Both the position numbers and the translations under genes were made by a program. Source: an uncultured Alphaproteobacteria bacterium (GTDB lineage Bacteria > Pseudomonadota > Alphaproteobacteria > MPNO01 > DASWLB01). Taken from it: 64,000 nt of DNA. How positions within the stretch are numbered: the stretch's first letter is position 1; each line of letters starts with the position of its first letter. The stretch covers positions 4,239 to 68,238 of the forward strand of contig CAWGXN010000004.1 of the NCBI GenBank assembly GCA_963826605.1, in the 5' to 3' direction. Of this stretch, positions 1 to 20,195 are shown in pieces. Below the pieces are notes generated by a model, which was given only the letters and a program-made list of their open reading frames with translations, did no database searches and was not told where the DNA came from.

Positions 1-176
1 CCCACTGGGTGGGTTGTCCCGAGCCGGGCTGGACTCTCTTCGACGGACCGCCAACGGCCGAGTTCCATATCTGCGTCGCCGAGGTCCAGGACGGCTGGCT
101 GCTCTCCGGCATCAGGTTGTTCGGCCCTCAGGGCGGACCCGAGTACCACGTCGTCGTCGGCCGCCTGGCGAGCTGA
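1..176 (+). CDS. 3' end of an unidentified gene that starts upstream of the window. It is absent from the ORF track because it has no start codon
   Basis: Frame 3 reads HWVGCPEPGWTLFDGPPTAEFHICVAEVQDGWLLSGIRLFGPQGGPEYHVVVGRLAS followed by TGA at 174-176. This is protein-like, unlike the Arg-rich first ~55 codons of ORF 14..802 in the overlapping frame. Confidence 0.35.
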   Translation, partial: HWVGCPEPGWTLFDGPPTAEFHICVAEVQDGWLLSGIRLFGPQGGPEYHVVVGRLAS

Positions 177-190
177 CCGTCTCCCGAATC

Positions 191-802
191 GTGGCCGAGT
201 CCAGCGCGCCGACCAGCCCACAGGATCCGGATCTAAGCGTCGTGCGCGCGACCGCCGCGCACCTTCTCGATGCCACGTTCGCGAGCCTGACTGATGGCAA
301 CGTCCTGCCGCGCCCGGGATTTGCGCCATGGATCCGGATGGCCCGCGACTACTACGGCGACATGCTCCGCGGAGGGGCCGATTTCGACCGGGCGCTAAAG
401 GCGGCATGGCCAAGCCGCTTCGACGTGGGCGTCGGTGACCGCAACCTCGAGTTCGCCTCGACCTACGAACGTGCTCTGATCGAAGACGCAGTCCAGGCGG
501 CTACTCGCGCGCACGAGCCCTACACGGCTTCGAGCCCATCGGTGGCCGCAGCGGTCGATCGAATGGTCGCGAGGCTACAGTCGAAATGCCGCCTGAGAGT
601 CGCCAACGTCATCGCCGACCTGACCACCGTCGACGACAAGCCGGTGGTCGTAGGGAACATCAGGATCGTCTCGACGCCCGACGGTGCCGAGCGCGACCTT
701 GAACGTGAGATCCCGGGGGCCGGATTCCTGCTGGAGCGCGAGGATGCCATCGCGCTCGGAGGCGGCGGAACTGCGCTCATGATCGGTGACGACGACGGCT
801 GA
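191..802 (+). CDS. Hypothetical protein, possibly the N-terminal part of the downstream HEPN protein (frame break near 795)
   Basis: This is the later part of ORF 14..802. GTG 191 sits just after the upstream stop. The ORF ends ..ALMIGDDDG*, and a 1-nt shift continues into DGDFEEATGRARQRL of ORF 786..1886. Confidence 0.4.
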   Translation: MAESSAPTSPQDPDLSVVRATAAHLLDATFASLTDGNVLPRPGFAPWIRMARDYYGDMLRGGADFDRALKAAWPSRFDVGVGDRNLEFASTYERALIEDAVQAATRAHEPYTASSPSVAAAVDRMVARLQSKCRLRVANVIADLTTVDDKPVVVGNIRIVSTPDGAERDLEREIPGAGFLLEREDAIALGGGGTALMIGDDDG

Positions 803-1886
803 CGGTGACTTCGAAGAGGCCACCGGACGCGCTCGACAGCGATTGCGTCGGCTGCTGGCGTGCATCCGGCTCGGGTCCGCAACGACGGCCAGGCCGATGG
901 CCGACGTCTCCGGTGAGCCTGGGCTCTGCCACTTGATCGGGCCCATCGCGTACCCGCTCCGCCACGGCGGCCGCCTTACGTTCGTGCACCGCTCGGTCGC
1001 CGTTGGTCCCGGCGACGCGGCTTGGATCTCCGCGCTGTCGGCATCGATCGAGGAGTCGACCCGGTCGCCCCTCCCCAGCCCGCTGGTCGCGCTCGGCCGA
1101 CTCAATCGGGTCCTCGACGAGCCCGGCCGGATCCTGGCCGATCAGGCGATCGATCTCGCGACCGGACTCGAGGCTGCGCTCGCAGGAACTCGCGCGGAGT
1201 CCGAGATCGGCCTCCGCCTTCGAAACCGGGCCGCGGCGTTCCTCTCATCTCCGGCGGATCCGCCCGACTCGATCTACCGCGACGTGAAGGTCCTCTACGA
1301 GCTCAGGTCGGCATTCGTTCACGGATCGTCTCTGTCGGAAGATGGCGTCTGGAAGCTGCTCGGCAAGGTCTCGACCGCCACCGGGACCGACTGGCGCGGC
1401 GAGCAATACGAACTCGTCCTCGATCGCTGGCGTGACCTACTTCGGCGCGCGATCCTCTTCCGGCTGGCGCTCGGGTCATCGCCGGATCCGCTGTGGCCGC
1501 TCGCAAAGGAGACGACCGACGTCGACGCCGCGATCGTCGATGCCGCCGAGGTCGGCCGATGGCGAGACCGGGCCTTGCACTACTGGTCTGAACGGGATTG
1601 CCCACCGCCCTCGACCGCGCCCCCGCGCTCCAAGGTCTTCTATCCGTCGGCAGGGCCGATTCCATCGCCGCTGAACCGACCGTGTGACGTGCGAGGCGGC
1701 CCACCGGATGGTGTCATTCATCGACCAGCACCGTACGCATCGGTACGGTGCTGGCAACGGACGACACCAATCGCAACGAGTCCATCGCCTCCTGAGGAAG
1801 AGATCTACCCTGCGCCCCTCCGCGGCCTGAGCCTCCGAGCGCCTTCGACGAAGAAGATCATGTCGATCACCTTGGCCCGACTGTAG
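786..1886 (+). CDS. HEPN-domain protein (putative RNase toxin). The 3' end is uncertain
   Basis: The motif YELRSAFVHG gives Rx4H (R-SAFV-H) at 1305-1322, within a helical region (LRLRNRAAAFL...DVKVLYEL). The last ~80 codons are Pro/Ser/Arg-rich and run through the hairpin at 1726-1753, so the real stop is probably earlier. Confidence 0.5.
   Translation: MTTTADGDFEEATGRARQRLRRLLACIRLGSATTARPMADVSGEPGLCHLIGPIAYPLRHGGRLTFVHRSVAVGPGDAAWISALSASIEESTRSPLPSPLVALGRLNRVLDEPGRILADQAIDLATGLEAALAGTRAESEIGLRLRNRAAAFLSSPADPPDSIYRDVKVLYELRSAFVHGSSLSEDGVWKLLGKVSTATGTDWRGEQYELVLDRWRDLLRRAILFRLALGSSPDPLWPLAKETTDVDAAIVDAAEVGRWRDRALHYWSERDCPPPSTAPPRSKVFYPSAGPIPSPLNRPCDVRGGPPDGVIHRPAPYASVRCWQRTTPIATSPSPPEEEIYPAPLRGLSLRAPSTKKIMSITLARL
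1726..1753. terminator. Perfect 11-bp stem with a 6-nt loop between convergent genes
   Basis: cagcaccgtac-gcatcg-gtacggtgctg. There is no T-tract. It lies downstream of both the plus-strand HEPN gene and the minus-strand nucleotidyltransferase gene. Confidence 0.4.
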
Positions 1887-2808
1887 ATACGACCGGTGTC
1901 CAGACCGGTCTCAACATCCAACGTCGGCACCCGATGGCTCTCACTGATGCATGCCGGGATCGGGCTCCGCCCCGTCTCCGTGCCTTCACCGAACCTCCCG
2001 ACGTACGCCAGCAGTTCGTCGGCCAGGGCAGACGCGGACAGGCGCACCGTCTCAGGATCAGCGACGCCCTCGACGTAGCGGCCGGCCATGACGCAGCCGA
2101 GCGCGTCAGGCGCCGCGAAGAGTTCACGCAGGAACCCGAGCGCGGCCTCACCGACCAGAAGCGGACCGTTCGTCGGCGAGGATCGTCTTCATGCCTCGGC
2201 TACCAGTTCGGCGATCGGGAGCTGCAGGAGGCGATAGACGTCGAACGCGTCCTTGTCTTCGAGGCGGTTGCCGCGCGGCTCGTCCCGCCGCTCAGCCAGC
2301 TTGTACAGCTTGGCGATGAGCAGCGCCGCGGGCGACGCCACCCGCATCCGGACCGAGCGATGGTCCGCGGGATCGAGCGCGGCGACGAGCTCGGAACTCG
2401 TTGTCACAGCCGCGCCTTCCAGGCCAAGTACCTTGCGGGCGGCGCGGGTGCCGTGGCCCGTCAGGCGTGCGCCACGTCGACCGCCCTGGGCGGAGCGAGG
2501 CCCTCGGGGACCAGCAGGTCGACCTGCCCGGTCTCGTCGAGCCAGATCCCGGGCTGATCACCATGGTGGAAGCCGGCCTGCTGCATCGCCTTCTCGATTT
2601 GAGGCTCCTCAGCCAGCGGAGGCACCAGCACGATGTCGGCGTCCTTCGTGAACAGGGCGACCCCGAACGTGACCTCATCGGTGTGCAGGTAGATCGCCTG
2701 GGCACCCACGAGGACGATCCGGTCCTGGTGGCCGCTCAGGGCGTCGAGCGCATCGAGTAGCGCCCGGCGGGCATCAACGAGGACGGGATCCGGGGCGTCG
2801 CCAGGCAT
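1805..2808 (-). pseudogene. Nucleotidyltransferase-fold protein (AbiEii/MNT-like toxin), disrupted as sequenced
   Basis: Three collinear pieces: 2461..2808 (IVLVGAQAIYLHTDE..TKDADIVL), 2189..2407 (SPAALLIAKLYKLAERRDEPRGNRLEDKDAFDVYRLL) and 1805..2089. There is a frame change near 2468 and an in-frame TGA at 2189-2191, after which protein-like sequence continues. Confidence 0.5.
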
Positions 2809-3922
2809 CCTGGTTTCCCTCCATCCACACGATGAGTGCCTCGGCCTCCGCCGGACCGCGGCCGGGGCTGGTCAAGAGATCCGCCGCGACCTGCGGCAGG
2901 GCCGCGAACGTGATGCCGTCCTGATCCCAGGTCCGCTCGAACACAACGTCGGCCAGTGGCTCAATGAGCACCACATTGCCGCCGGTCGGAGCCTCGCGCA
3001 AACCAAGGCGAGTCGCGGCCTTGTCGATGTTCGGTACGTAGACGGCGGCGAGGGCGGCGGGCGCGACCTCGGCGCGACGAGCGGCGGCGAGGCTGCCGGT
3101 CACGGCGTACGGCGCGTCGAACTCGCGAAGGCGGGCCTCCAACGCCCGTGGGCCTCGCGGCTCGAGAAAGAACCGCGCTCTGTTGGCCTCCAGGAGGGAG
3201 TAGTCCTCCGTCCACCTCCGGAGGAGGCCTTTCCAGTCGACCTTCTCGATCGGCCCGCGTCCGCTGCGCTCGATGACTGCTTCGCTCACCAAGAGTGCGA
3301 CGACTCTCGATGCGCTCCCGAGGGGGAGCCCAGCGGTGTCGGCCAGCTGTCGGAGCGGATATGGCGGCCTGAACTCCAGCAGAGCGCGGACGACTCGGGC
3401 GGACGCCGGTCCCCGCAGCGATCGCAGGGGCCGGTCATCAGCCCACGGGTTCGATTTCGCTCCGCAGAGCTCGATGAAGATCGGGGGTACGCGCGTCGCG
3501 ATGCGCAGGTTGCCCGTGGCGTCCGCGTATGAGAACCCGACGCTCTCAAGCATCGTGCGAGTCCTCGCGGTGAGGAAGCGACTCATGACGAGCACGCCAT
3601 CGACGCCCGGTATGGACGCCACCCGTCCCTTCGGGACCGGCGGACGCAGCCAGAGGGATCCCACCTCGCTGGACAGAGCGTAGGTGTCCCGCGGGTAGAG
3701 GCTCGCGCGGGCCTCGACGGCCAGGCGCGCGCGGACCTTGTTGGGCGCCTCGATCACGAGGTATGCATCTGGCCGCCATGAGCCCGGCGTCTGGGCCTGC
3801 GGCTCGCGTTCGATCGCAATCGACCAGCCGTCTGGCAGCCTGTCGACGAGCATCAACTCGAGCGATCCAAGGAGCTCGCGCTCGCTCGAAGGCGCGGGGA
3901 CGTCCTTCAGTGTTCCAGTCAT
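2774..3922 (-). CDS. AbiEi-like antitoxin/regulator with a PD-(D/E)XK-like N-terminal region and a central wHTH-like segment
   Basis: ATG at 3922 (MTGTLKDVP). The N-terminus reads RPDAYLVIEAPNKVRARLAVEARAS. The middle reads ARVVRALLEFRPPYPLRQLADTAGLPLGSASRVVALLVSEAVIERSGRG. The C-terminus resembles AbiEi C-domains. It lies directly upstream of the NTase gene. Confidence 0.5.
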   Translation of the reverse strand: MTGTLKDVPAPSSERELLGSLELMLVDRLPDGWSIAIEREPQAQTPGSWRPDAYLVIEAPNKVRARLAVEARASLYPRDTYALSSEVGSLWLRPPVPKGRVASIPGVDGVLVMSRFLTARTRTMLESVGFSYADATGNLRIATRVPPIFIELCGAKSNPWADDRPLRSLRGPASARVVRALLEFRPPYPLRQLADTAGLPLGSASRVVALLVSEAVIERSGRGPIEKVDWKGLLRRWTEDYSLLEANRARFFLEPRGPRALEARLREFDAPYAVTGSLAAARRAEVAPAALAAVYVPNIDKAATRLGLREAPTGGNVVLIEPLADVVFERTWDQDGITFAALPQVAADLLTSPGRGPAEAEALIVWMEGNQDAWRRPGSRPR

Positions 3923-4017
3923 ATGTGCTGTTCCACTCCTTGCGGAACATGGCCAGTTCGTGGAACACCATACCACATCGTTCGGGTCGGCAAATGATGA
4001 CGAGCGAGCCCATCCGG

Positions 4018-4374
4018 TTACTTCCCTTGGCCTCGTTCACGGCGCTTGGTGCGGCGGCGGGAGGCCAGGAACGCGAGCCGGGTGAAGTAGGCCTTGCGGG
4101 CAGCGGCTGCTCGGCGCTGCCGCTCCGGCTCGGGGAGACGGCGATCGGGGTCGACCTCGTCGAGGAAGCGCTTGAGGAAGGCCGCGCGGGCAGGCGCCGT
4201 GATCTGGCGCGCGTCGTATCGCGCGTGGACGACGTATGCGCCCATGCGGCCGCGGAGGCTCCGCTCGGCCGGCGTCAGCGAGTCGCGCCTCACCGAAGCG
4301 CCTCGTCGGCTTCCTCGGCGCCGCCGCTTCCGAGCAATCGGACCCATGCGGGTGAGCCCACGGGCGTGAGGCAC
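4018..4374 (-). CDS. Small basic protein typical of actinobacterial-type mobile elements. The start is ambiguous (4374 or 4347)
   Basis: Reads LTPAERSLRGRMGAYVVHARYDARQITAPARAAFLKRFLDEVDPDRRLPEPERQRRAAAARKAYFTRLAFLASRRR. It overlaps the 3' end of the replication-relaxation gene. Confidence 0.45.
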   Translation of the reverse strand: MPHARGLTRMGPIARKRRRRGSRRGASVRRDSLTPAERSLRGRMGAYVVHARYDARQITAPARAAFLKRFLDEVDPDRRLPEPERQRRAAAARKAYFTRLAFLASRRRTKRRERGQGK

Positions 4375-5167
4375 CTGCGGGTGGTCGGATCGGCGACGAT
4401 CGCCTCGAGCGGAACCGGTCCCCCGCTCCAGCCGATCGGCTGCGTCGGCGCCCGGAGTCCCAGCGTCCGGAGGTCATCGAGGACGAGGCCCCACGAGCAA
4501 TGGTCAAGCCCGGGCCGCGCGTCCCACCGGCCGATCCGTCGGAGCCAGCCGAGTCGCTCCTCGGTCGGAACGACCCAGAGTACGTGCCAGCCGGTCGCGG
4601 CTCGCCAGGGCCCGCTCGTAGGCCGCGAGCCGTCCTCGGATCGTCGGCGAGTGCTCCGTCGCCTCGTCGATCTCGAGGCAGAGGACCGCCGAGCCGCCAT
4701 CGAGCTGAAGGACGACGACACTGTCGGGACGCACGTCCGCGAGGCAGGACATTGTCGACCATCGGCTCGGTGAGCCAGAGCTGGACTGCCCGGACGCCGA
4801 TCGGACGAGCGCGCAGACGGCGTCGACGATGTCCAGCGAATGGCGGACGCTGACCGACTCCGCCGGTTCGCGTGTCGTGGTAGCCGAGGCGCTTGCTGCC
4901 ACGCCGGGTGATCCGGTAGACGACCGGGATGCCGCCGCGATCGGGCGCGAGCGGAGCACGCTCGAGGAGGCCGAGTTGCCAGAGCCGTCGGAGCCGGCGT
5001 AGCGCCGTTCGCCGGCTCGGGAAGATGAGGGAGGCGACCTGATCCCCTGTAGCCACGCCAGCGCGATACAACAGTCGCAGGCAGGCGCGATCTCGGACCG
5101 ACAGTAGCCCGACGTCCACGCTGGCCAGGAGCGTTCGTTCAGCGCTCTCGCGGAAGACGACAGTCAT
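4290..5167 (-). pseudogene. Replication-relaxation family protein, spread over three frames (about 4 frame breaks)
   Basis: ATG at 5167: MTVVFRESAERTLLASVDVGLLSVRDRACLRLLYRAGVATGDQVASLIFPSRRTALRRLRRLWQLGLLER. It continues as ESVSVRHSLDIVDAVCALVRSA, then VQLWLTEPMVDN, then VRPDSVVVLQLDGGSAVLCLEIDEATE, then GWHVLWVVPTEERLGWLRRI, in alternating frames. The breaks are near 4868, 4788, 4745 and 4597. Confidence 0.6.
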
Positions 5168-5282
5168 GGAAGCAGTCCCGTCGATTGGTCGGCCGGGACG
5201 CGCACAGGGCACCGGCACGGGCCTGACGCGGGTCGACCCACTCGCGCGCCACCCCGCGCGACGGTCCGCCGACAATCCCGCG

Positions 5283-7634
5283 TCATCGCCTGACCGTCCC
5301 GCGCGCGTCGGGCGTGCTCGGCGACTCGGCGCCACCCGCCCGCAGGAACACCTCGGCGCGAACCTCGTCGATCGGGCTTGCATCGCGAGCATCGCTGGCA
5401 GCCACGATCTCAGCGGCCAGGGCCGGGTCAGCCGGATCGGGCGGCAGGAGCATCCCGCCGTACGCCGTCGGCTGGCCGCCGCGCCCGGGCATCCGCATGA
5501 CGACCTCGTACGCACGGAGCGAGGTCAGTTCCTCGGCCGTCACTGGCGCGAACAGCCGGGCCAGGGTGCGGACATCTTCGGATCCCGGCGCGAGGAGCGC
5601 GATCGTGGCTGCGTTGGTCAGGACCGACCGGCTGAGACGCTCCCCCAGCCCGCCGAGCGACTGCGACGCGAGGCCGAGGGCAAGGCCGAACTTCCGGCCT
5701 TCGACCAGCGTGTTCTCGACCGCGCGAGTTGAGAACCGATGGGCCTCGTCGATGAGCAGCAGGTGCTGGCGACGGGCCGAGGGCGTGAGCTCCTGCCGCC
5801 CGACCGCGTCGACGTAGTAGCGGCTCGCCAGCATCGCGCCGAACAACGTCGCGTTGTCGCCGCCGACGCCGGACAGGTCAACGAGCAGCACATCGCCGCG
5901 ATCCATGACTTCGCGGGGCCGGATCGTCGACACGCCCTGGCCGACGACCATTCGGATCGAGTCGTACGTCACGAACGCGCCGAGCTTGTTGAGAACCGCC
6001 TTGATCGACGGGTCGCGATCGCGCTCGCCACCCGACGGCCACTGCGTCTCCCAGAACCCGCGGATCATCGGGTCCCGGAGGTGCTTGACGAACCGGGCAC
6101 GGAAGGCGTCTTCGGTCAGGACGCGGATCAGTTCCAGGATCGTCTGCGGCTGCTCGTCGGCGAGGAGCGTCAGCAGCGCGTTGCGCAGGTAGTGCTGCAT
6201 CTTCGGGCCGCAGAAGCGCGGCCAGAGGTCCTCGAGCATGTACACGAACTCCGACGCGACGAGCTGGTCGTCGCTGGGCGATTGGCGCTCGAGGAAGTTG
6301 AAGCCGCGAGGATGGGCGCGGTCCGCGAGGCGCAGCACGTGGACGCGGCCCGTCGCCGCGCGGGGGACCCGGCCGAGGACATCGTTCACGAGGTCCCCGT
6401 GCGGGTCGATGACCGTCGTCCCGATGTCGGCTTCGATCGCCGCCAGCGCGAGGTTGAGCAGCAACGTGCTCTTGCCCGACCCCGTCGCGCCTAGGGCCAC
6501 AACGTGCCGCGCCAGGATCCGATCCGGGATCGCAAGCGGTCGGCCGTGAGCCTCGCCGACGACGAGCCCGAGCTCGCCCGAGCCGCTGGCTGGCGGAGGT
6601 GCGGCGAGCGCCCGATCACGGGGGAAGCCGGCGCGATCGAATGACGCATCAGGCAGATACCACAGCTGTGCGAGCTCCCAGTCCGCCAGTCGGGCTGCCC
6701 GCGGCGCACGGGCCGGACCACGTCGGATGTCCCAGCGGAGCTCCTGTTGACCATCGCCCAGTGGGTGGGTGAAGTCGACCAGGCGCCACAGGAGCGCCTC
6801 CGACTGATCGGCTGGGATGCCGGCGACCTCGAGGATGAGACCGACGTCGAAACCGACGACGCCTCGGCCCTTTCGGGTCCGGGCGTCGCGCTCCTCCGGC
6901 AGAAGGACCGGCGCGGACGACTTCTCGCGGTAGTCGCTGTCGCGGAGTAGTAGGCCATCGATGATCGCGTTGCCGACGAGCTGGCCCATCGACGGGCTCG
7001 CGCTCGCGGACAGGGGCGCCGTGAGCCTGCGCCAGTCATCAGGCGGGACGGGTCGCGCGACAACCCGGAGACGGACCTCGGCGCCGTGTGGTGCGGACAC
7101 GAGGCCGGCCGCCAGTCGATGGAGGGCTCGAGCCTCCGGCTTGTCTACCTCCCGGAGCGGCCGGCTCGCCGATGAAGCCAGTCGAGCGACGCCCGAAGCC
7201 GCCGGCATGCGCGTGACCGGACCGGCGACGTCGACAACCGTCCCGGGGTACAGCGAGCGGAGCGCGTTCTCGACCAGGGTCGCCACCTGCCGGTTGGTGC
7301 CGACCTCCCAGCGGAGCCCGCCGTCGACATGGACGACCCGGAGCTCGATCGAGGGCCAGCCGGCGCGCCAGCCATCGAAGCCGCGGCGCTGTCGAGGATG
7401 GATGGCCCGGATGAGCTCGACCGCCAGATCGGGGTCGGGCGCTAGGCCGGCAGGCGCAGAGATGACCAGCCTGACGGCCTCCGCGCTGGACGCCTCGTCG
7501 TAGGCGCGCTGCCTCGACGCCCGGACGAGGGGTGGCCCAATCTTGGCGGCGCCGTAGGCGCCAAGGACGGCCAATACCGGCTGGATCAGCCCGGTCAGAT
7601 CGGGCAGCGGAAGCGGGACGAGCGGCTCTGTCAT
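5283..7634 (-). CDS. TraD/VirD4-like coupling-protein ATPase (FtsK/HerA-superfamily P-loop)
   Basis: 783 aa and intact. It has an N-terminal TM segment, Walker A GATGSGKST and Walker B LLLIDEAHRF. An AGGAGGA Shine-Dalgarno sequence lies 7 nt upstream of ATG 7634. Confidence 0.8.
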   Translation of the reverse strand: MTEPLVPLPLPDLTGLIQPVLAVLGAYGAAKIGPPLVRASRQRAYDEASSAEAVRLVISAPAGLAPDPDLAVELIRAIHPRQRRGFDGWRAGWPSIELRVVHVDGGLRWEVGTNRQVATLVENALRSLYPGTVVDVAGPVTRMPAASGVARLASSASRPLREVDKPEARALHRLAAGLVSAPHGAEVRLRVVARPVPPDDWRRLTAPLSASASPSMGQLVGNAIIDGLLLRDSDYREKSSAPVLLPEERDARTRKGRGVVGFDVGLILEVAGIPADQSEALLWRLVDFTHPLGDGQQELRWDIRRGPARAPRAARLADWELAQLWYLPDASFDRAGFPRDRALAAPPPASGSGELGLVVGEAHGRPLAIPDRILARHVVALGATGSGKSTLLLNLALAAIEADIGTTVIDPHGDLVNDVLGRVPRAATGRVHVLRLADRAHPRGFNFLERQSPSDDQLVASEFVYMLEDLWPRFCGPKMQHYLRNALLTLLADEQPQTILELIRVLTEDAFRARFVKHLRDPMIRGFWETQWPSGGERDRDPSIKAVLNKLGAFVTYDSIRMVVGQGVSTIRPREVMDRGDVLLVDLSGVGGDNATLFGAMLASRYYVDAVGRQELTPSARRQHLLLIDEAHRFSTRAVENTLVEGRKFGLALGLASQSLGGLGERLSRSVLTNAATIALLAPGSEDVRTLARLFAPVTAEELTSLRAYEVVMRMPGRGGQPTAYGGMLLPPDPADPALAAEIVAASDARDASPIDEVRAEVFLRAGGAESPSTPDARGTVRR

Positions 7635-7786
7635 CGGTACTCCTCCTGGACCGCAACCGACAGGAGGGCGGGTGACACTGCCCGGCCCGTTCGGCCGTCA
7701 CGGACCCATCAAGGGAGCAGACCTCGTTAGGGTGGAATCCATCGATACGACGTTAGCCCGGCGTCGGGGCAGATGGAAGCGCAACC

Positions 7787-7810
7787 GTGTACGTCTGCGT
7801 GTACGTCTGC
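7787..7810. repeat. Tandem direct 12-mer (gtgtacgtctgc x2) in the TraD/Vsr intergenic region
   Basis: Exact 2 x 12 bp read directly from the sequence. It could be an iteron or oriT-type site, or incidental. Confidence 0.5.
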
Positions 7811-7971
7811 GGGCGGTCGGCAGGAGCTCTCGTCAGTTGAGTGGGAATCACCACTTCCGGACTGACGTGGCAGCGGGCTGCGGCGCGGACCGTCCGCCTG
7901 GCCCAGCCGCGAGGGGCGCAGCGAAACCGGCCCACCCTGGCGCAACCTCGTGAGGCGAGCGATGGAGCGGC

Positions 7972-8439
7972 CTAATTGAAAGTGCTGTCCCCGACTACTT
8001 GCCCCGCGTCGATCGTTGCTCTCCGCCGTTCGGCGATGTAGGCGGCCAGCTCAACTGCGCGAGGAATTGGGTCTGGACGGATCTCGTGCTCCCAGACCAC
8101 CAGGACCTCCCACCCCATTCTCGTGAGGACCTCGAGTACGCGTGCGTCGCGTTCCACGTTCGAAGTCAACTTCTCCTTCCAGAAGCCGGCGTTGGCTCGA
8201 GGCTGGGGCGGCTGGCACGTGGGACATTGGTGCCAGAAGCAACCGTTCACGAATACAGCCAGACGCAGCCGCGAAAAGACAACGTCAGGCCGGCCCGGAA
8301 GGCTCTCGTGAAGCCGGTAGCCGCGCACGCCCTGATGCCAGAGCGCGCGCCGAAAGGCGATCTCTCGTCGTGAGACCCGCTGATTGGCGCGCATGGTGTT
8401 CCGCGCGCCAATCGAACTCGCAGCCGGCGACTTTGTCAC
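7972..8439 (-). CDS. vsr: Very-short-patch repair endonuclease Vsr
   Basis: Reads PDVVFSRLRLAVFVNGCFWHQC...FWKEKLTSNVERD...GWEVLVVWEHE. GTG 8439 overlaps the dcm stop (GTGA at 8436-8439). Confidence 0.85.
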   Translation of the reverse strand: MTKSPAASSIGARNTMRANQRVSRREIAFRRALWHQGVRGYRLHESLPGRPDVVFSRLRLAVFVNGCFWHQCPTCQPPQPRANAGFWKEKLTSNVERDARVLEVLTRMGWEVLVVWEHEIRPDPIPRAVELAAYIAERRRATIDAGQVVGDSTFN

Positions 8440-9583
8440 CTTCGACGCTTGCCCGCCATTCTTTCTTCGAAGATCGGACCAGCGTAGTCGTAGATCACAT
8501 CGCCGAGCCACTTGAATTGCGGCACGACGACGGAGTTGCCGAATTGGCGGTAGGCGCGCGCGTCGGACATGGTCTCCGGGAGGATGAACGGTTTGCCGAG
8601 GTGCTCAGGCGTGAAGCCCATGAGCATCGCGCACTCCGCTGGCGTGAGGCGCCGCGGCCGCTCCGAGTCGCCGACGCGCAGGAGGATCTCTGCTCCATCC
8701 TTGTAGTAGCGAGCGCTCAGCGTCCGGGTGACCCCGTCGATCTCCGCGATCCCGTAGCCGAAGCCGTTGCCCTTGATCAGGTGCCTCGCCCGGTGCTTCT
8801 TTAGCGCGCGCCAGACCCCATCAGTGAGCCTGTACCTTTCGAGTTCGACGGGATCCTGCTCCAGGAGTTCCGCACGAAGCCGAGGCCCGTCGACCGCAGA
8901 GGGCGGGTCCGGAATTTCGAACCGACGCGGGAAGTGGCGCCGGTTGAGCCCCACGATGATGGTCCGCCGGCGGTTCTGGGGCACCCACGCCGCCGCGTTG
9001 ATCACCCGATGGCTCACGCGGTAGCCCGACCTCAGCAGGCGGCGCCGGATGACCTTGAACGTGCGGCCCTGGTCGTGCGAGAGAAGATGACGCACGTTTT
9101 CCAGGAGCAGAACGGGAGGAGCGTCCGTCGGCGGGGGGCTTGACGACAGAAACGCGTCCTCTTCGGCGTCGTCGTTCACGAAGGGTGCCTCGGCCTCGTG
9201 GCGCAGCTCGTCCGCTCCGATGTCCACGGGGCCGCCGACCAGCTTGATGATCTCGAAGAACAGGTTCCCCGACGTCGGGTCGTCAAACCCGTGTGCGCGC
9301 CCGAGGCTCTGCTTCTTGCTGACGCCGGCGATGCTGAACGGTTGGCAGGGGAAGCCCGCGCTGAGGATCTCGTACGGCCGCTGCTTCAGTTGATCCCTCG
9401 TCAGCGTGGTGACGTCGTCCCAGTCCAGCTCGCCCCAATTCTCTGCGTAGGTCTTGCGGGCGAAGCGGTCGATCTCCACCGAGAACGTGCACTCTCCACC
9501 CGCGCGTTGTAGGCCGCCCCGGATGCCGCCGATCCCCGCGAACAGGTCGACGAAGCGGAACCGGGGATCCGGGTCACGCGCAC
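8436..9583 (-). CDS. dcm: DNA (cytosine-5)-methyltransferase. The 5' end needs a 1-nt correction near 9565
   Basis: Motif I FRFVDLFAGIGGIRGG is at 9515-9560, upstream of the tracked ORF start at 9479. Motif IV is GFPCQPFS, followed by ENV and QFGNSV. GTG 9583 becomes in-frame if the C4 run at ~9564-9567 is really C5. Confidence 0.85.
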
Positions 9584-9641
9584 CGTCGCCTTCGAAATCG
9601 GTCAGGTCGACTCGGCGCGGCCGCCCGGATCGAGAGAGCCG

Positions 9642-11708
9642 TCATGAGGCGGCCTCGACAACGGCTTTGAAGCCGAGGCGCTTCGCCTCCTTGAGGATCT
9701 TCTCGCCCTGCACGGCCTGCTTCCGTGACGGCTTGCGTCCCGCCGCCGCCAGGCCGCCGAGGCTGAATGCGATGCTCCGCTGCCAGCCTTGCAGGTTCTC
9801 GGTCTCCTTCGCCCACTTCGAGATCTGGAACCATGTGCTCGGAGGCACCTGCGCCATCTCGTCGATGAGCGCCTGTTCCCCGGGCGACGTGTAGTCGGCA
9901 AGCGCCTCCGTGGCGCGACGCCTGCGCCCATCGGCCGCGCCGGACGAGAGGAGGACAGCAGCCGGCAGGGACATTGCCTCTGGGATGTCGAGCCCCTTCA
10001 CCCTCTCCCAGCACTCGGGCCGCTTCGACCACTCCGTGACGTTGCCGCCCCGTGGCGGGCTGATGATCACCTCACGGACGGCAATCGCGATCGCCCGAAT
10101 AGCGTCCTCCAGTTCCGGCCGCAGTCGTTGCTCGCGCCAGATGAGGTCGAGGTCGACGAGCTGGGCGGTCGTGTGGCTGAGGCACGCGACGGAGTACGCC
10201 ACGATGTTGGCGCGGTAGCCGCCGAAGTGCTGGCCCGTGACCAGGCGCTCTGTCTGGCGGAACAGGATGGCCTTCGCAATGAGCCGCTCGAAGTACTCCT
10301 GCGTTACGGCGACCGCTCCGCGTTCTCCCAGGCGGAGGGCGAAGTCCCTGAAGTTCTTCTCGGCACCGAGGCTGACGATGTGCGGGAGCGACGACCACGA
10401 GTTCTCGAACTTCGCCAAGTCCGTCTTCGTGAACTTCTGGGACGTCGGGTTGGTCGCCTTGAGGGCCTTCTGGCGCGCCGTGGTGACCTCGCGGGCCAGG
10501 GCGTCCTGGTACTGCCCACGCGCCCGCTCGTAGAACCAGTGCGTCTGCCGCTGGGTGCCGTCGACGGCTGGCGCCCAGACGGTCCGGGACAGCCGCTCGA
10601 GCTCAACGTGGTAGGGATCGTTCGCGGCGAAGTCGGCCTCGTTGACGCGGTTCTGGCTGTTGGCGAACTTCGTGATCTTGGGCACGAACGCGTCGAGCTT
10701 CTCCGGGGCGACAACCGTGATCTTGGCTGCGACTGCGAGGTGAGCGAGGTCGGCCGCGTCCCTCCGCCTCGCCGCGTGGATCGAGGCCGTCGTCTGGCCG
10801 CCGTTCACGATCTGCACGTCGTCCAGCGCGCCAACGCCGCGGGCGCCGCTGGTTGAGTCAAGACGGAGCCGCGACGCCGTGATCGAGATCCCGTTGTTGT
10901 AGGCGAGGAAGTGCTCGGGCTCCTCCAAGATCGTCTTCCGGATCCCTTGGTTCACCTTGCCGCGTGCTTGGAGGAAAGACCGGACGTTGCGCTCCAGCAG
11001 GCGTGGGCCGTACTCCTCGTAGATGTCAGCGAGCACAGACCCGGGTATTACAGCGAGGTACGCCGTGAAGTCCCCGTTGGCCGATCCGGCTGAGACGCAC
11101 GGGAGCGGCTCGCCGAACCGCGCTGTGAAGTCGATCGAGATGGGCTCCCTCGCGAGGCCCGAGGTTGCGGCGCGGAAAGTCCGCCGAAGGTCCCAGACGT
11201 GGAAGGAGACGATGACGTCCCCCTCCTGCTCGGCCTTGACCTCCTCAACAGTCGTGAGGCCGTCGGTGAGGAAGAACAGCCGCAGTGACCGGACGCTCGG
11301 GCCGAACGCGTGGATCGACTGGACCATATCGAAGGCCGGGGACGCCTCCTCCATGGTCTTGTGGAGACCGGCCCGCGACTTCCTGTAGAGCTCCCGAAGT
11401 CGGCCGAACGCCGTCGAAACCTCGCTTCTTGGCACGGTCGCGGGGGGCGTGGAGCCGGTGTACCGGGTAACCATCAGGTTCAGGGTGCCGAGCTCCTCGT
11501 CGACGCTGTAGCCGCTCGCCTCGAGGCCCCGCGCCTGGTAGAAGCACACGTCGGCGTCGTCGATCTCGCCCACGTCCGCGAGGATCCCGACCATCCACCT
11601 GGTGAACTCGTCATGGAGCAGAGCCCCCTCATCCGAGGCGTCGGCGGAGGCCAGGATGCCCTGCTGGACCTCGACGGAATAGGCGGCGAGGTCCTCGTCG
11701 AGGCTCAT
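9642..11708 (-). CDS. AIPR (abortive-infection phage resistance) family protein
   Basis: Reads RSFLQARGKVNQGIRKTILEEPEHFLAYNNGISITA...IVNGGQTTASI. ATG 11708 overlaps the upstream stop (ATGA at 11705-11708). Confidence 0.85.
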   Translation of the reverse strand: MSLDEDLAAYSVEVQQGILASADASDEGALLHDEFTRWMVGILADVGEIDDADVCFYQARGLEASGYSVDEELGTLNLMVTRYTGSTPPATVPRSEVSTAFGRLRELYRKSRAGLHKTMEEASPAFDMVQSIHAFGPSVRSLRLFFLTDGLTTVEEVKAEQEGDVIVSFHVWDLRRTFRAATSGLAREPISIDFTARFGEPLPCVSAGSANGDFTAYLAVIPGSVLADIYEEYGPRLLERNVRSFLQARGKVNQGIRKTILEEPEHFLAYNNGISITASRLRLDSTSGARGVGALDDVQIVNGGQTTASIHAARRRDAADLAHLAVAAKITVVAPEKLDAFVPKITKFANSQNRVNEADFAANDPYHVELERLSRTVWAPAVDGTQRQTHWFYERARGQYQDALAREVTTARQKALKATNPTSQKFTKTDLAKFENSWSSLPHIVSLGAEKNFRDFALRLGERGAVAVTQEYFERLIAKAILFRQTERLVTGQHFGGYRANIVAYSVACLSHTTAQLVDLDLIWREQRLRPELEDAIRAIAIAVREVIISPPRGGNVTEWSKRPECWERVKGLDIPEAMSLPAAVLLSSGAADGRRRRATEALADYTSPGEQALIDEMAQVPPSTWFQISKWAKETENLQGWQRSIAFSLGGLAAAGRKPSRKQAVQGEKILKEAKRLGFKAVVEAAS

Positions 11709-12709
11709 GCTGCCGCCCCTCTCCCTATGCGGGCCAACAGCGCGGGGAAGCCGATCTCGTGCTGCTTGCAGCTGTCGACTGCGACGCCATAGGAGACTTC
11801 GCCGACCCCCATGGGCAGGTCGTGCTCGGTTAGCCGCGGGAAATCCGTGCCGACCTCGCACGCCAGCGCCCATCGCACGTTGTACGAGGTGTGCCGGTAG
11901 CGCGACGCCTGCGGGTCGGCCCAGCCCGCCGACAGCAGCCGATCCTGCAGCAAGTCGAGGGCGGCGGGCTCGGACTGGACGGATGCCCGGGCTTCGACCA
12001 CGGCGTCGACCAGAGTCGGCGTGCCCCCTGTCCTCGGCTCGAGCGCGACGATGACGAGCCCCAGGAATTCGAGGCCGTCGGACTGGAGCTGGCGCTCACT
12101 GGCGATCCTCACAGCGGCAGGTGCCGCCTGCCGGGTCGTCTTGACCTCCACAGCCCACGCGCCGGTCTGGAAGTCCTGGAGGCCGCCGAGGGGGCCGCGC
12201 CACGTCCCCACGGCCGCGAGCCTCCCGGCCGTCGGGACCAGATGACCAGTCAGGAACCAGAGTTCGCCGAAGAGACCGGCCTGCTCGTCCGGCGAGAGTC
12301 CCTCCGGCGCGGTCTTCTCAAGGAATCGCTGCCAGTGCGCCAATCGCGCGGCGACCGCCTCGACCACGCTCCCCAGGGCTGCCGCCTCAGCCGCCAACAA
12401 GACGTCCTCGGCGAGTGCGGCGAAGATGTCGTTGTACTCCGCGGAGCTGGCCGCGAGCGACACCGTTGATCCGGAGACCGAGAGGGGGAACGGCGACTTG
12501 CTGACCTCGACCCCGCGCAGCCGCAGCTCGCGGAGGGGCGCGGCGTCGACGTCTTGGGGGAAGTCCATCGCCAGCAGTCGGCAGCCGGACGGCTCCGCCA
12601 CCGCGAGATAGAGGGCGACCGGCGCCTGGGAGTCGAGCTTGATCCGAAGGTGGCCGGCGCCCGTGGGCGCTGCCTTCTCGAGCTCGCGCCACTTGGCTTC
12701 GAGGGTCAC
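11705..12709 (-). CDS. PD-(D/E)XK motif protein (DUF4420-like nuclease fold)
   Basis: Reads GLFGELWFLTGHL...WRGPLGGLQDFQTGAWAVEVKTT. GTG 12709 overlaps the Z1 stop (GTGA at 12706-12709). Confidence 0.7.
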   Translation of the reverse strand: MTLEAKWRELEKAAPTGAGHLRIKLDSQAPVALYLAVAEPSGCRLLAMDFPQDVDAAPLRELRLRGVEVSKSPFPLSVSGSTVSLAASSAEYNDIFAALAEDVLLAAEAAALGSVVEAVAARLAHWQRFLEKTAPEGLSPDEQAGLFGELWFLTGHLVPTAGRLAAVGTWRGPLGGLQDFQTGAWAVEVKTTRQAAPAAVRIASERQLQSDGLEFLGLVIVALEPRTGGTPTLVDAVVEARASVQSEPAALDLLQDRLLSAGWADPQASRYRHTSYNVRWALACEVGTDFPRLTEHDLPMGVGEVSYGVAVDSCKQHEIGFPALLARIGRGAAA

Positions 12710-15433
12710 GCCTCGTCCTCCCACCCGAACTCGTTCGCGAGGTGCACCTGGTTCACTACGTACTCGATCTCCCGCTCGACGCCGCGGCTCGGGAAGCTGA
12801 CAGCTAAGCCGACGACCGGTCCGACCGACGTGTGTGCGTCGTAGATGCTCAGAGGGTAGAGGAGCAGCAGGCCGCGCTCGTGCGTCCGCTGCTGCCTCAC
12901 GGCCCAGCCGACGGGCACGCTCGGCTGCCTGGTGGCGACTCCGGCCTCCCGCCAGCGATCGACTGTCACTGCGAGGGCTCTGGCGCGTTCCTCGTCCGTG
13001 AGGTCAAGAGTCTCGTCGGCGGGGTTGACGATCCGCTTGATCGTGAGCGTGCCATTGGGGGCTAAGAGCTTGCGCATGACCAGTCCGACGCCGAGCCCTC
13101 CGATGCTGGCGCCCTTCGTCTCTTCGTCATCAACCGAAACCAGCGCCACCGTCCAGTCCGTCAGGTCTCCCGACACGGCGCTCGCCCGGATGAACTTGGC
13201 GATCGCCTTGGAGTCCGACTTGAGGACGTCGGGGTCGGTGCGGAAGTCTTCAAGGAAGTGCTCGACGGTCTCGGGGCTCACCTTGCGCCAGAGGCGGGTG
13301 GGCCGGGCCTTGCCGGCCGCCCTCGCGGACGGGGTCCAGTTCCGGCCGAGTTCGGCGACCAGCCGGTCAGTAGCGGCGAGGTTCCGCTCGATGTCGTCCT
13401 TGCGGAAGGTGATCGTCTCGGTCGTGCTGTCGCCGAAGGTGAGCCGCACCGTCTTGCTGTGCCGCAGTTTGCTCGGCGAGGTCACCATCAGTCCGTCGGG
13501 GCTCTTCCGGACCCTGCAGCCCGAAGGTCTCAGGCGTCTGGTGGGTGGCGACCATCTCGTCGAAGAGCTCCATCAGCTCCTCGTTCGCGAGGGTGATGTG
13601 CGCGTACCACCGAATGAGCTCGGGCGTCGAGTACAGCCGGCAGAAGTCCGAGTAGCCAGGCCGGTAGCCGAACCAGCGGCCCATCTGCATAAGCGTGTCG
13701 TACATGCGGGAGCCCGGAGGAAGTAGGTGACCGTGAGGCCCTCGAGCGTCAGGCCGCGGCTGAGCTTGTCGCCGCCGACGGCGATCACGGTGAGGCCATT
13801 CTCGGCGTTCTCGACGTAGTCGAGGACGTCTTTCGCAGTGCCGTTGACCTCCTTGACCCTGACGGCGGTGACGACGTCGACCACGTGCGCCCGGACGTCC
13901 TCCCAGCCCAGTGGCGAGGCAGCCCATGCCCTCGCTCGTCGGCTCGAAGTCCGTGTGCCACAGCCGCTCGAGTTCGTCCCAGGCCGACGGGCCGTCGCCG
14001 TCGCCGAACCGCAGTCGGCGGCGCAGGCGGTCCACCTCGTCCCCGATCGCCTCGACGAGCTGCCTCTGCACAGCGGTGAACCGGGTGACGTGGACCAGCA
14101 TGGAGTTGTGCGCGGCCAGCTGCCCTCGCGCTGCACGCGCCGCCGAAGCGAGCACAAAGGCGCGGATCGCCTCCGCCAGCGACTCAGGGAAGGGACCGAC
14201 GACGTGATCCTTCTTGTGCTTGGTCGGCAGCCAGTCCTCCGCGTCCTCCACTTGGCGCAGCAGGGGCAGCGGGTCGCGAGCCGGCTCCTCGCCGAGCGCG
14301 CGCTCGAGGCCGAAGACGCTCGTGGGGCCCATGTAGTTCGACGGGGGCCGGAGGTTGATGATGAAGCTGCGCGGGAAGAGTCCCTCGCCGATGGACGGCG
14401 AGTCGGCGTTGAACTGGCTGAGGATGTTCGCGAACGGGGTCGCGGTGTACCCGACGTAGGCCTTCTTCTCGAATGCGGCGAGCAGCGCACGGATCTGGCC
14501 GTTGATCGTGGAGGGTCGGATCTCCTCGTCCGGCGTCCCGTTCTCGTCGCGCGGGACGTCCTCGCGCACCTTCGACGTGTCTATCGAGGCGTTGTCTGCC
14601 TCGTCGTCGATTATTAGCAGGGGGACGTCGCGGACGACCTTGCGGCCCGTCACCGGATCTTCGACTTGGCGAAGGGTGGTCGCCCACTTCGTGACATTCG
14701 CCAGGATGGCCTTGTTCTTCTTGACGACCAGGAGCACGGGGTCGGCCCCGCCGACCATCACGTTCTGGGTACGCGCGACCTGGAGGCTGAAGTCTCCGTT
14801 GTCCGCACTGCTGGTAAGCGGGTGGACGTTGAGCAGTCCGTACCCTGTCAGCTCGCCGACTCCCATCCGGATGGTCTGGCTGTCCTTGCGCAGTCTGCGC
14901 TGCGTGTCGAAGCCCAGGAACCCCTCGTCGAGGCGAACCTGGGTCTGGCTCCGGAGGCTGTTGTGCAGGCCGGCAAGCACGATAACAAGCTTGTACCCGG
15001 CGTCAGCGGCCTTTGCGATGAGCCCGATGTACGTCGACGTCTTGCCCGACTGGACCCGGCCGACGACGAGTCCGCGCCTGTCCCACGCGCCGGATCGCTC
15101 CGGGTCCTCCAGGCGCCCAAGGATCTCGTCGGTCACGTCGTCGAGCCGGCGGACAACCGAACGCGGCCAGTTCAGCCGGCCTTCGAGGAAGGCCTCGTAC
15201 CGCTCCCAGAATTTCCAGTCGAGATCGGGCTTCCTCCCGCCGAGCCACTCCTTGTGGCCTCGGGGGTCATCGAGGATCTGGCCAGTTGGCACCCATACCA
15301 TGCAAAGGGTTTCGATCTCGCGGACGAGCTCCTCCAGGGTCGTGGCGTCGTCTGGATGGAACTTTCTCCACGCCTCGAGCGCCGTCCCCGCATACGACTC
15401 GATCTGCTCGGTCGTGGGGGTGTCGTCGAGCAT
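12706..15433 (-). pseudogene. Z1-domain protein (P-loop/helicase-like N-terminal part plus Z1 domain) with three frame breaks as sequenced
   Basis: ATG at 15433 (MLDDTPTTEQ). Motifs are GRVQSGKTS, LLIIDDEADNAS, GGDKLSRGLTLEGLTVTYFLR and MYDTLMQMGRWFGYRPGY. Frame changes lie near 13922, 13720 and 13514. The pieces are ORFs 13367..15520, 13573..14490 and 12706..13488. Confidence 0.8.
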
Positions 15434-15462
15434 CTGGAGCACGGAGCCGATGAGCCTGCGAT

Positions 15463-15540
15463 TTACTGAGCCTCCCCCTCGGACAGCACCGACGCGACGA
15501 CCTCTGGGTAGCGGTCGCACAGTTCCATGGTCCCCAAGAT
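15463..15540 (-). pseudogene. 3'-terminal remnant (~25 codons) of the gene preceding Z1, presumably the GHKL/MutL-like ATPase expected in this kind of system
   Basis: Reads ..ILGTMELCDRYPEVVASVLSEGEAQ* with TAA at 15463-15465. Everything upstream in that frame is Arg-rich out-of-frame EamA sequence. Confidence 0.3.
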
Positions 15541-15544
15541 GGCG

Positions 15545-15851
15545 GAACCACGCCGGTCGACACGCCGCGCTCGATCGCCTCGAACACGCCGATCAGATAG
15601 GCGCCGTTGAGCAGCAGCCCGGCGACCGCGATGTGCCCGCCCTCGGTGAGGCTGCGCGGCCAGGGCGCGCGCGTCCACAGCGCGATGACCAGCAGGATGG
15701 TGGCGGAGATGGCGAGCCGGACGGCGAGGAAGCTGAACGGCGGCGCGAAGGGCAGGCCGAGCCGCGCGAAGATGAAGCCGGTCGACCACAGCACGACGAA
15801 CAGCGCGGGTAGCGCGATGGCGGTGGCCGGTCGGGGCGGGGCGGGCAGCAT
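15545..15851 (-). pseudogene. EamA/DMT-family transporter with only the first ~100 codons present, truncated at the junction
   Basis: Reads MLPAPPRPATAIALPALFVVLWSTGFIFARLGLPFAPPFSFLAVRLAISATILLVIALW...LLLNGAYLIGVFEAIERGVSTGV, then becomes non-protein-like. Confidence 0.6.
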
Positions 15852-15958: not shown

Positions 15959-17041
15959 ATGCGCCGCCTCGGTCTGATCGCCGCCGCCGTCGCGGCCGTT
16001 CTGGCCGCCGGCTACACCGTCTTCTGGTTCCGCGCCGCCGATGCGCTGCAGGCAGGCGTCGCCGGCTGGCAGCAGGCGCGCCGCGCCGAGGGGTGGGATC
16101 TCGCACTCGGCGCCGTCGAGACGACGGGTTTTCCCTTCCGCCTCGCGGCGGTGGCCGACGGCTTCACGATCGGACGGGGCGGGCCGGTCCCCTGGCGCTG
16201 GAGCGGACCGCGCCTCGTCGTCTCCGCGCCGCCCTGGGGCGGTGACGACGTTAGCCTGGATGCACCCGGCGCGCACAGGGCCCGCGCGGACCTCCCGGCG
16301 GGGCCGGTCGCGCTCGCGCTCGACGCCGCGACGGCGCACGGCACGGCGCGGCTTGGCCCGGACGGGCGGGTCGCGGCGCTGCATGTCGTGCTGGCCGGCG
16401 TCACCGGGCACAGCGCCGATGGCGCCCCGTTCCATGTCGATACGGTGGTGCTCTCGCTCTCCGGGGCGCCCGGCCCCGCGGCCTCGCCAGCAGCGGGCGC
16501 GGCGGCGGGCGGGCTGCGCGCCCCCGAGGCGGGGCGGCTTCACCTCACCGCCGACGGGCTGGACCTGCCCGACGGCGCCGCCGGGCCGCTGGGGCGCCGC
16601 ATCGACCATGGCGAGGCGGACGTCACCCTCGATGGCGCGCTGCCGGCCGGGCCGTCGCGCGCGGCGCTGGCCGCGTGGCGTGATGCGGGCGGCACGGTCG
16701 AGCTGCACCGGATCAAGCTCGACTGGGGCACGTTCCGGGCCGAGGCGAACGGCACGCTGGCGCTCGATGCCGAGCTGCAGCCGATCGGCGCCTTCACCAC
16801 CCGGATGTGGGGCGTCGAAACCGCGCTCGACGCGCTGGTCGTGGCGGGGACGATCGACGCACGCGCCGGCGCGATGGCCAAGATCGTGCTGCGGATGATG
16901 GCGAAGCCGGCGGCGGCGCCTGGCCAGCCGTCCGAAATCGAGGTGCCGCTCGCCCTGCAGGACCGCAAGCTCTATCTCGGCCCGGCCGCGGTCGCCCGGC
17001 TGCCGCGCATCGACTGGCCGGACGGCGGCGACGAACGTTGA
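15959..17041 (+). CDS. DUF2125 domain-containing protein
   Basis: 360 aa with an N-terminal TM segment. It reads YTVFWFRAADALQAGVAGWQQARRAEGWDLALGAVETTGFPFRL and has a C-terminal LQDRKLYLGP. Confidence 0.7.
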   Translation: MRRLGLIAAAVAAVLAAGYTVFWFRAADALQAGVAGWQQARRAEGWDLALGAVETTGFPFRLAAVADGFTIGRGGPVPWRWSGPRLVVSAPPWGGDDVSLDAPGAHRARADLPAGPVALALDAATAHGTARLGPDGRVAALHVVLAGVTGHSADGAPFHVDTVVLSLSGAPGPAASPAAGAAAGGLRAPEAGRLHLTADGLDLPDGAAGPLGRRIDHGEADVTLDGALPAGPSRAALAAWRDAGGTVELHRIKLDWGTFRAEANGTLALDAELQPIGAFTTRMWGVETALDALVVAGTIDARAGAMAKIVLRMMAKPAAAPGQPSEIEVPLALQDRKLYLGPAAVARLPRIDWPDGGDER

Positions 17042-18926: not shown

Positions 18927-20195
18927 CTCTGCCAGCGCCTCGGTGCGGGCGCGGTGGTGCGGCACGAGGCTCTGCCACGTCTCGCCCGCGGCGAGCTCGG
19001 TATCGGCGACGCCGGTGATGCCGGTCATCGAGGGCAGCGGCGGCGGCGCCTTGCCGGCGGCGAGCTCGCGCGCGGCGGTCAGCAGCACGCGGCGCGTGTG
19101 GATCACCGCGGCGTCGGCCGGCACAAGATGCTCCTTCGTGCGGTCGAAGATCGGCCCCATCGACAGCGCGACCGCCGCGTCTTCCTGCTCCAGCCCGGCG
19201 AACCCGCCCCAGCGCTCGGCCATCGTCGAGCGGTCCTGTCCGAACCGGTTCGCCCACGTGCCGCGCCACTTGAAGTCGGATTCGGAATAGAGCCGCGAAT
19301 CGCCAATGCCCGACAGCGCGCGGTGATGCGTCCGCGCGTACGGCTCCTTCGAGTGGACGATGATGTAGGTGGAGGTGTTCTCGTCGTCGAGCGGCACCTC
19401 GAACAAGGTCGCGACGCGCGCCTGCGCCGGGATGATGCGCGCCGACGGCAGGATGAACGGCACGATGCGCACGCTCTGCCCGCCCGCAGGCGTCCTGCGG
19501 AAGGCGGCGTAGTGGAAGCCGAAATCGGTGGTCTCGATCGCGAGACTCGGCGCGTTGTCGTCGACGGCGAGCGCGCCCGGGTTCAGCGCGTCGGCGTTCG
19601 GCCTGAAGCCGCCCTGGTGCCAGCCGGGCCGCGCCTGGTCGGAATGCAGGATGCCGACATGCGACGAATCCATGCCGCCCTCGAGAAGCTGCAGATAGTT
19701 GCAGCGTATGTCGATGCGCTCGATGTTGCGGTGGCTCGCGGGCGCGCCGAGGAAGGCGAAGTCGGGCAATGGCGGCTGGGCGTCGGCCGGGCCGAAATAG
19801 CCCCAGATCAGCCCGCCCGCCTCCTGCACCGGGTAGGTCGCGGCGCGGAACTTGGCCATGAAGGCGGGGTTCGGGTAGTTCGGGCAGTCCACCAGCCTCC
19901 CCTCCACGTCGTACTTCCAGCCGTGATAGAGGCAGCGTATGCCGCACGCCTCGACGCGGCCGAGCGCGAGCGAGGCGCCGCGGTGCGGGCACAGCTCGTC
20001 GAGCAGGCCGAGCCTTCCCTCGGTATCGCGGAACAGCACGTAGTCCTCGCCGCCGAAGCGCGCGCGCACCGGGTCGCTGTCGCACCGGTCCACCTGGCTC
20101 GCCAGCGCGATGGGAGTCCAGTAGCGGCGGAACAGGCGCCCCATCGGCGTCTCCGGTCCCACCCGGCATAAAAGCTCGTTGTCCTCTTTACGCAT
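18915..20195 (-). CDS. Rieske [2Fe-2S] aromatic ring-hydroxylating oxygenase, alpha subunit type
   Basis: Reads CPHRGASL...CLYHGWKY. 426 aa and intact. Confidence 0.85.
   Translation of the reverse strand: MRKEDNELLCRVGPETPMGRLFRRYWTPIALASQVDRCDSDPVRARFGGEDYVLFRDTEGRLGLLDELCPHRGASLALGRVEACGIRCLYHGWKYDVEGRLVDCPNYPNPAFMAKFRAATYPVQEAGGLIWGYFGPADAQPPLPDFAFLGAPASHRNIERIDIRCNYLQLLEGGMDSSHVGILHSDQARPGWHQGGFRPNADALNPGALAVDDNAPSLAIETTDFGFHYAAFRRTPAGGQSVRIVPFILPSARIIPAQARVATLFEVPLDDENTSTYIIVHSKEPYARTHHRALSGIGDSRLYSESDFKWRGTWANRFGQDRSTMAERWGGFAGLEQEDAAVALSMGPIFDRTKEHLVPADAAVIHTRRVLLTAARELAAGKAPPPLPSMTGITGVADTELAAGETWQSLVPHHRARTEALAELAE

Follow-up and report, generated by a model that had tools for sequence, protein, structure and literature searches.

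Chimeric contig ends are a known artefact of long-read metagenome assemblies and of the metagenome-assembled genomes (MAGs) built from them: DNA of another organism is seamlessly fused to a native contig end, genes on either side are cut at arbitrary positions, and the true continuation lies at another contig end. A biological process can leave similar traces. Double illegitimate recombination, or microhomology-mediated capture of DNA during natural transformation, has been described for Acinetobacter baylyi, and such captures usually insert segments far shorter than the one considered here. We analyzed a 64,000-nucleotide stretch (the window) from the genome of an uncultured alphaproteobacterium (GCA_963826605.1; six contigs, C1 to C6, 4.48 Mb), in which the gene for an EamA-family drug/metabolite transporter (eamA) runs abruptly into the tail of an ATPase gene (mzaB) from an Mza defence operon. 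The window covers positions 4239–68238 of contig C4 (CAWGXN010000004.1), so that the joint, at 15.5 kb of the window, is merely 19.8 kb from the start of C4. With moderate confidence, we read the joint as a mis-resolved fork in an error-prone long-read metagenome assembly, that is, as a chimera and not as a feature of the chromosome. The initial annotation of the window had offered three explanations (a deletion-scarred island edge, an illegitimate recombination, and an assembly or binning chimera), and the last is the best supported of them: contig C3 ends at the joint, the piece to the left of the joint is foreign and stands at a contig end, and a second chimeric end is present in the same assembly.

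Two unrelated genes had been reported to be truncated at the joint, and both truncations are confirmed and meet at one point. The N-terminal eamA piece, whose open reading frame (ORF) starts at 15851, matches the Pfam EamA family and has 82–84% amino-acid identity to full-length orthologues (294–304 aa) in two genomes of the same genus (G001 and G003). A three-way DNA alignment with both genomes places the end of homology after GGCGTGGT, between positions 15547 and 15546. Homology therefore stops after codon 101 and two bases of codon 102, in agreement with the initial estimate that the gene is no longer protein-like beyond about codon 102. In another frame, from 15546 down to the TAA at 15463–15465, the DNA encodes SAILGTMELCDRYPEVVASVLSEGEAQ and a stop, which corresponds to the C-terminal end of the HATPase_c_3 gene found ahead of Z1 in close relatives; in one of these (L093) the tail of the HATPase gene reads VVLATMELCDRYPEVVASVMSEGEAQ before its stop. 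The surviving part of this gene, first put at about 25 codons, comes to 27 codons plus the TAA. A GC3-phase hidden Markov model written for another purpose also set a frame switch at exactly this place, between C4:19784 and C4:19785 (window 15546 and 15547). Direct and inverted repeats at the joint do not exceed chance, and the search for att sites or a target duplication returned chance matches only. The 64-kb window contains no transfer RNA (tRNA) gene. The earlier statement that the joint lacks a repeat, tRNA or integrase thus stands for the repeat and, within the window, for the tRNA, but a tRNA-Lys and a tyrosine integrase do occur on the left piece, 17 kb off and outside the window. On the other side, the DUF2125 gene next to eamA marks where ordinary chromosomal synteny begins.

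The decisive evidence is the fate of the missing part of eamA, for which the initial annotation had suggested a search of the remaining assembly. It forms the very end of C3, where tblastn searches with G001 proteins located EamA residues 115–304 at C3:297798–297229, reaching the last base of this contig (297,799 bp). Beside it are a ridA-like gene, a padR-like gene and two dienelactone-hydrolase genes, in the same order as in G001 and G003. When the C3 end is followed by C4 from base 19788, the result is an uninterrupted protein of 291 aa with two EamA domains, whose sequence over the joint (GVSTGVVALIAGLQ, with STGVVALIAG at the joint itself) is the same as in the relatives. As in a misjoin, the gene therefore continues elsewhere in the assembly, and the join to the C3 end restores the eamA ORF. 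The last three bases of C3 (ACC) are identical to C4:19785–19787; because the native path from C3 and the left piece both enter the same trunk within 3 nt, the joint corresponds to a fork in the assembly graph. The companion search for the missing ATPase gene by tblastn found no part of the rest of mzaB anywhere in the genome. The best relative of the rebuilt EamA in the collections searched is only 90% identical, which indicates that this population is unrepresented in them. Searches for exact matches to the DUF2125 protein and to the chimeric 194-aa ORF also returned nothing, and the same collections hold no independent assembly of the joint, the intact allele or the donor.

A second join of this form is found elsewhere in the assembly, at the start of C6. 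Its first 2.19 kb or so (C6:1 to ~2190) has a GC content of 37% and carries permease-like fragments, which matched no Pfam family. About five frame breaks fall within 1.3 kb of this tip, which is of single-read quality. The tip is fused within a response-regulator gene on the minus strand, the remainder of which begins at C5:1 with one base missing; the joined protein forms one continuous Response_reg domain (profile positions 1–109 of 111). We read the start of C6 as an unambiguous chimeric contig end, its tip being plainly an artefact. The pattern matches that of C3 and C4, since in both cases a native contig halts at the joint and the neighbouring contig bears a foreign tip.

The piece to the left of the joint (C4:1–19784) differs from the rest of the genome in several respects. 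Its tetranucleotide distance, a comparison that the initial annotation had recommended, ranks 5th among 225 windows of equal size, the top two of which contain poly-T runs, and its density of GANTC sites is at the 98.7th percentile. Its GC content is lower, as had been noticed by eye, but the difference is small (0.689 versus about 0.705 in native DNA). The repeats reported to be missing left of the joint are likewise depleted there rather than absent: genome-wide repeated 16-mers cover 53 bases of the piece versus a median of 267. In order, the piece carries a PMT_2-like membrane gene, tRNA-Lys(UUU), a tyrosine integrase, a HEPN/AbiE-like region, Replic_Relax, a TraD/HerA-like ATPase, the genes for Vsr, Dcm, MzaE, MzaD and MzaC, and the MzaB tail. 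The first three lie outside the window, with the tRNA-Lys and the integrase 1.7–0.7 kb ahead of its start. The integrase lies 5′ of the tRNA-Lys, where a 3′ position would be usual; the pair showed no att repeat, and the tRNA-Lys segment has no further copy on the left piece.

The tRNA and the TraD/HerA-like ATPase give some indication of where this DNA came from. The extra tRNA-Lys(UUU) is 83% identical to the native tRNA-Lys(UUU) on C1, and its best match reaches 87% among 300 Pseudomonadota genomes and 93% among 300 Actinomycetota genomes, with at least 90% in 13 genomes of the latter. In 27 of 301 Actinomycetota genomes, the matches to the ATPase include near-full-length homologues, with some alignments that extend over most of the query and ORFs of similar length; the matches in Pseudomonadota (five of 300 genomes) all cover the C-terminal half only. 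The architecture of this gene is of the Actinomycetota type. A plasmid search with the same protein yielded matches of 23–33% identity only, mostly from Gram-positive bacteria. Judged from these sequence comparisons, the left piece probably derives from a high-GC Gram-positive (Actinomycetota-like) lineage. A recent horizontal transfer would give the same composition, tRNA and type IV coupling protein-like signals as DNA from another organism. No close donor of the left piece was found. The closest relatives of the operon, in L093 and L109, were rejected as donors at 82% and 77% DNA identity, respectively. Homologues of the PMT_2-like gene occur in unrelated chromosomal contexts, and a look-up of the HATPase cluster gave no complementary mzaB fragment.

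The assembly as a whole is in a poor state. Its CheckM-type completeness is 78.7%, compared to 93–98% in relatives of the same genus and of similar size. The GC3-phase model finds candidate frame switches at about two per 10 kb on every contig, and real frame breaks were verified by eye in several native genes to the right of the joint (Table 1). Those breaks are indel noise of the assembly. Counted with one detector for both, the left piece has about 0.66 breaks per kb and native DNA has a similar rate. Two contigs contain long runs of pure poly-T, either long-read artefacts that the assembler retained or some form of masking. Several other contig ends consist of atypical, lower-GC DNA; these lower-GC islands show no likeness to the left piece, and a manual attempt to pair the other contig ends yielded no clear partners. 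At the ends of C1 and C4, the final 216 bases form an inverted pair (94% identity), an ordinary contig break caused by a repeat.

The operon cut at the joint resembles the Mza systems described by PADLOC (MzaB to MzaE). The genes for MzaC, MzaD and MzaE (PADLOC E-values of 4e-122, 1e-18 and 8e-102, respectively) stand in their usual order beside a C5-methylase gene and vsr, as in L093, L099 and L100, close relatives in which all the operon genes are intact. An HATPase_c_3 gene of 499–535 aa precedes Z1 in every relative examined (L093, L013, L020, L099 and L100), and the L093 protein matches PADLOC MzaB. The operon described here differs in that MzaB is reduced to its last 27 codons, so that the full set of MzaB to MzaE is not present, and in that the MzaC and dcm genes are frame-broken. 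Comparison of Z1 with the intact 921-aa gene of L093 (tblastn, MAFFT) revealed three frame-shifting indels. In dcm, a 1-nt insertion relative to L093 shifts the gene into the frame of the AIPR stop codon, and no start codon remains for catalytic motif I. The first 515 codons of Z1, the AIPR gene and the TraD-like gene are free of frame breaks. Because native core genes are broken at the same density, the breaks in Z1 and dcm are probably assembly noise, and we rejected decay as their cause.

Table 1. Features at and around the joint and elsewhere in the assembly (window positions unless a contig is given).
Feature	Position	Strand	Remarks
Left piece, foreign (19,784 bp)	C4:1-19784; window part 1..15546	none	unique in genome; contig end
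tRNA-Lys(UUU)	C4:2418-2492		outside window
Tyrosine integrase	C4:2753-3545		outside window; one frame break at C4:3251
Remainder of operon	7972..12724	minus	Pfam and PADLOC matches; comparison with L093
Vsr	7972-8439	minus	Pfam
Dcm	8436 to ~9641	minus	start lost via 1-nt insertion near 9601
AIPR / MzaE	9642-11708	minus	Pfam, PADLOC
DUF4420 / MzaD	11705-12709	minus	Pfam, PADLOC
Z1 / MzaC	12706..15433	minus	three frame segments; breaks near 13925, 13715 and 13515; Pfam Z1, PADLOC MzaC
HATPase_c_3 / MzaB, last 27 codons and TAA	15463..15546	minus	~470 upstream codons absent
Native eamA (DMT transporter), 5′ part	15547..15851	minus	codons 1-101 and two bases of codon 102; last native base 15547
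Native DUF2125 gene, conserved eamA neighbour	15959..17041	plus	Pfam DUF2125; same neighbour in G001 and G003
TonB-dependent receptor, native	break ~23083		verified by eye
Hybrid histidine kinase, native	break ~25005		G003 orthologue intact
ATP-grasp gene, native	break ~29734
Phosphoketolase, native	break ~44391
FAD monooxygenase, native	break ~62744
LLM-class oxidoreductase, native	break ~63312
Pure poly-T run, 4,491 bases	C2:40610-45100		within contig
Pure poly-T run, 1,681 bases	C3:273926-275606		within contig

Under the assembly scenario that we favour, eamA would be intact in the organism, with its 5′ third on C4 from base 19785 (window 15547) and its 3′ two-thirds in the last bases of C3. 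The assembler would have attached a 19.8-kb piece of another organism's DNA to the native trunk, leaving C3 as a dead end. The source would probably be a high-GC, Actinomycetota-like bacterium with a tRNA-Lys, an integrase, a mobilisation module and an operon for Mza, Dcm and Vsr, and the piece taken from it would happen to stop 27 codons before the end of mzaB. Retention of the false link between the foreign DNA and the native trunk would have broken the true connection between C3 and C4, and the cut transporter and the cut ATPase would be its by-products. In keeping with this scenario, the joint cuts a five-gene Mza operon that is complete in the close relatives L093, L099 and L100, and the remainder of mzaB is absent from the genome. 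We infer that the foreign piece is tied to eamA by one or more chimeric reads or by a chimeric draft path and is not joined to it in the DNA of the cells. The joint resembles chimeric contig ends in several points. DNA that is probably of another organism is fused without a seam to the end of a native contig, both flanking genes are cut arbitrarily, and the native sequence continues at the end of another contig; the assembly also has other artefacts, namely indel noise, runs of poly-T and a further chimeric tip. The piece differs from such ends in its length (19.8 kb) and in its multi-read consensus quality. A plain chimera also does not predict the 3 nt that the outer end of the piece has in common with native sequence at the joint.

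Two observations weigh against an assembly origin. Unlike the tip of C6, the left piece keeps its multi-read quality as far as the joint, and a chimera therefore needs an assembler that chose a weak false link although both true links were well supported; how the assembler behaved is itself something that we infer. The bases at the contig ends add to the difficulty. C3 ends in ACC and C4 begins with ACG, the right junction reads GGCGGA-ACCACG-CCGG (ACCACG being window positions 15547–15552), and the initial ACG of C4 is exactly the three bases that follow the end of C3 in the native sequence. If the end of C3 abuts C4:1, the 19.8-kb piece is a complete insert with a 6-bp duplication or with 3 + 3 nt of microhomology. 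The chance of finding ACG at the start of C4 is about 0.02 and the match is unexplained under a chimera, although it was noticed post hoc.

The same observations are what make a real, strain-variable insertion conceivable, and we give it a minority share of our belief. A 19.8-kb fragment of a foreign chromosome would have entered eamA between ACC and ACG, either by end joining or by double illegitimate (microhomology-mediated) recombination; a mixture of cells that carry the insert and cells that lack it would produce the fork, and the assembler would have tied the insert to one flank only. The 3-nt microhomology (ACC) at the right junction, the expected ACG at the start of C4, the native-like consensus quality of the piece and a seamless join free of adapter remnants all fit such an event. 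The illegitimate recombination named in the initial annotation thus keeps a tentative place, given this microhomology and the possible 6-bp flanking duplication. As in the captures of A. baylyi, both junctions would show about 3 nt of microhomology, there would be no recombinase site, and an arbitrary donor fragment would disrupt a host gene. The piece is, however, far longer than those captures, and its left junction, which exists only if the end of C3 and C4:1 are adjacent, is deduced from two contig ends. Nor does the piece have element-like ends, as one cuts mzaB and the other falls about 80 bases into an apparent divergent ORF. It bears an apparent donor tRNA and an integrase, the piece shows no amelioration, C3 contains zero bases of insert, and the identical pattern of contig ends at C5 and C6 involves plainly artefactual DNA. 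Taken at its fullest, and with the same minority share, this reading has an alphaproteobacterium directly capturing an arbitrary chromosomal fragment of a distant donor related to Actinomycetota, by way of two 3-nt microhomologies (ACC and ACG) and in an event still polymorphic; the fragment would bring along the donor's tRNA-Lys together with an integrase, a mobilisation module and an Mza operon that has lost its head.

Two further explanations take the joint to be real. It could mark a single border of a foreign element far larger than the left piece, for instance an integrative and conjugative element or an integrated plasmid, which is inserted in eamA in all cells and whose other end was left unassembled or unbinned. 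The integrase, Replic_Relax and coupling protein-like genes of the left piece are in keeping with an element of this kind, and so are the atypical, lower-GC ends of other contigs, as expected if the assembly breaks in islands. We nevertheless consider it improbable. C3 halts exactly at the joint and does not run into the element, the edge of the element would fall inside a gene of a defence operon, and no att site or target duplication of the site-specific integration kind is present. Indeed, the joint has little in common with that of a site-specific island: it has no repeat, the integrase is 17 kb away, the target is in the middle of eamA, and the element would end in the middle of mzaB. The deletion-scarred island edge, in which a deletion at the border of an old island took away the 3′ portion of eamA with its neighbours as well as the 5′ portion of mzaB, would account for the truncation of both genes at the same base. 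But the eamA 3′ part is present at the end of C3 together with the ridA-like, padR-like and hydrolase genes in ancestral order, and C3 and C4 fit to the base; we regard this explanation as refuted.

If the insertion into eamA were real, the locus would be a rare natural snapshot of the capture of DNA between phyla by illegitimate recombination. If, as we favour, the joint is a chimera, the genome should be trimmed by 19.8 kb at the start of C4 and by 2.2 kb at the start of C6, and C3 could be joined to C4 and C5 to C6. Three annotations in a public MAG, namely the cut transporter, the cut defence operon and the Mza/Dcm island ascribed to this alphaproteobacterium, would then be artefacts, unfit for surveys of gene content, horizontal transfer or defence systems.

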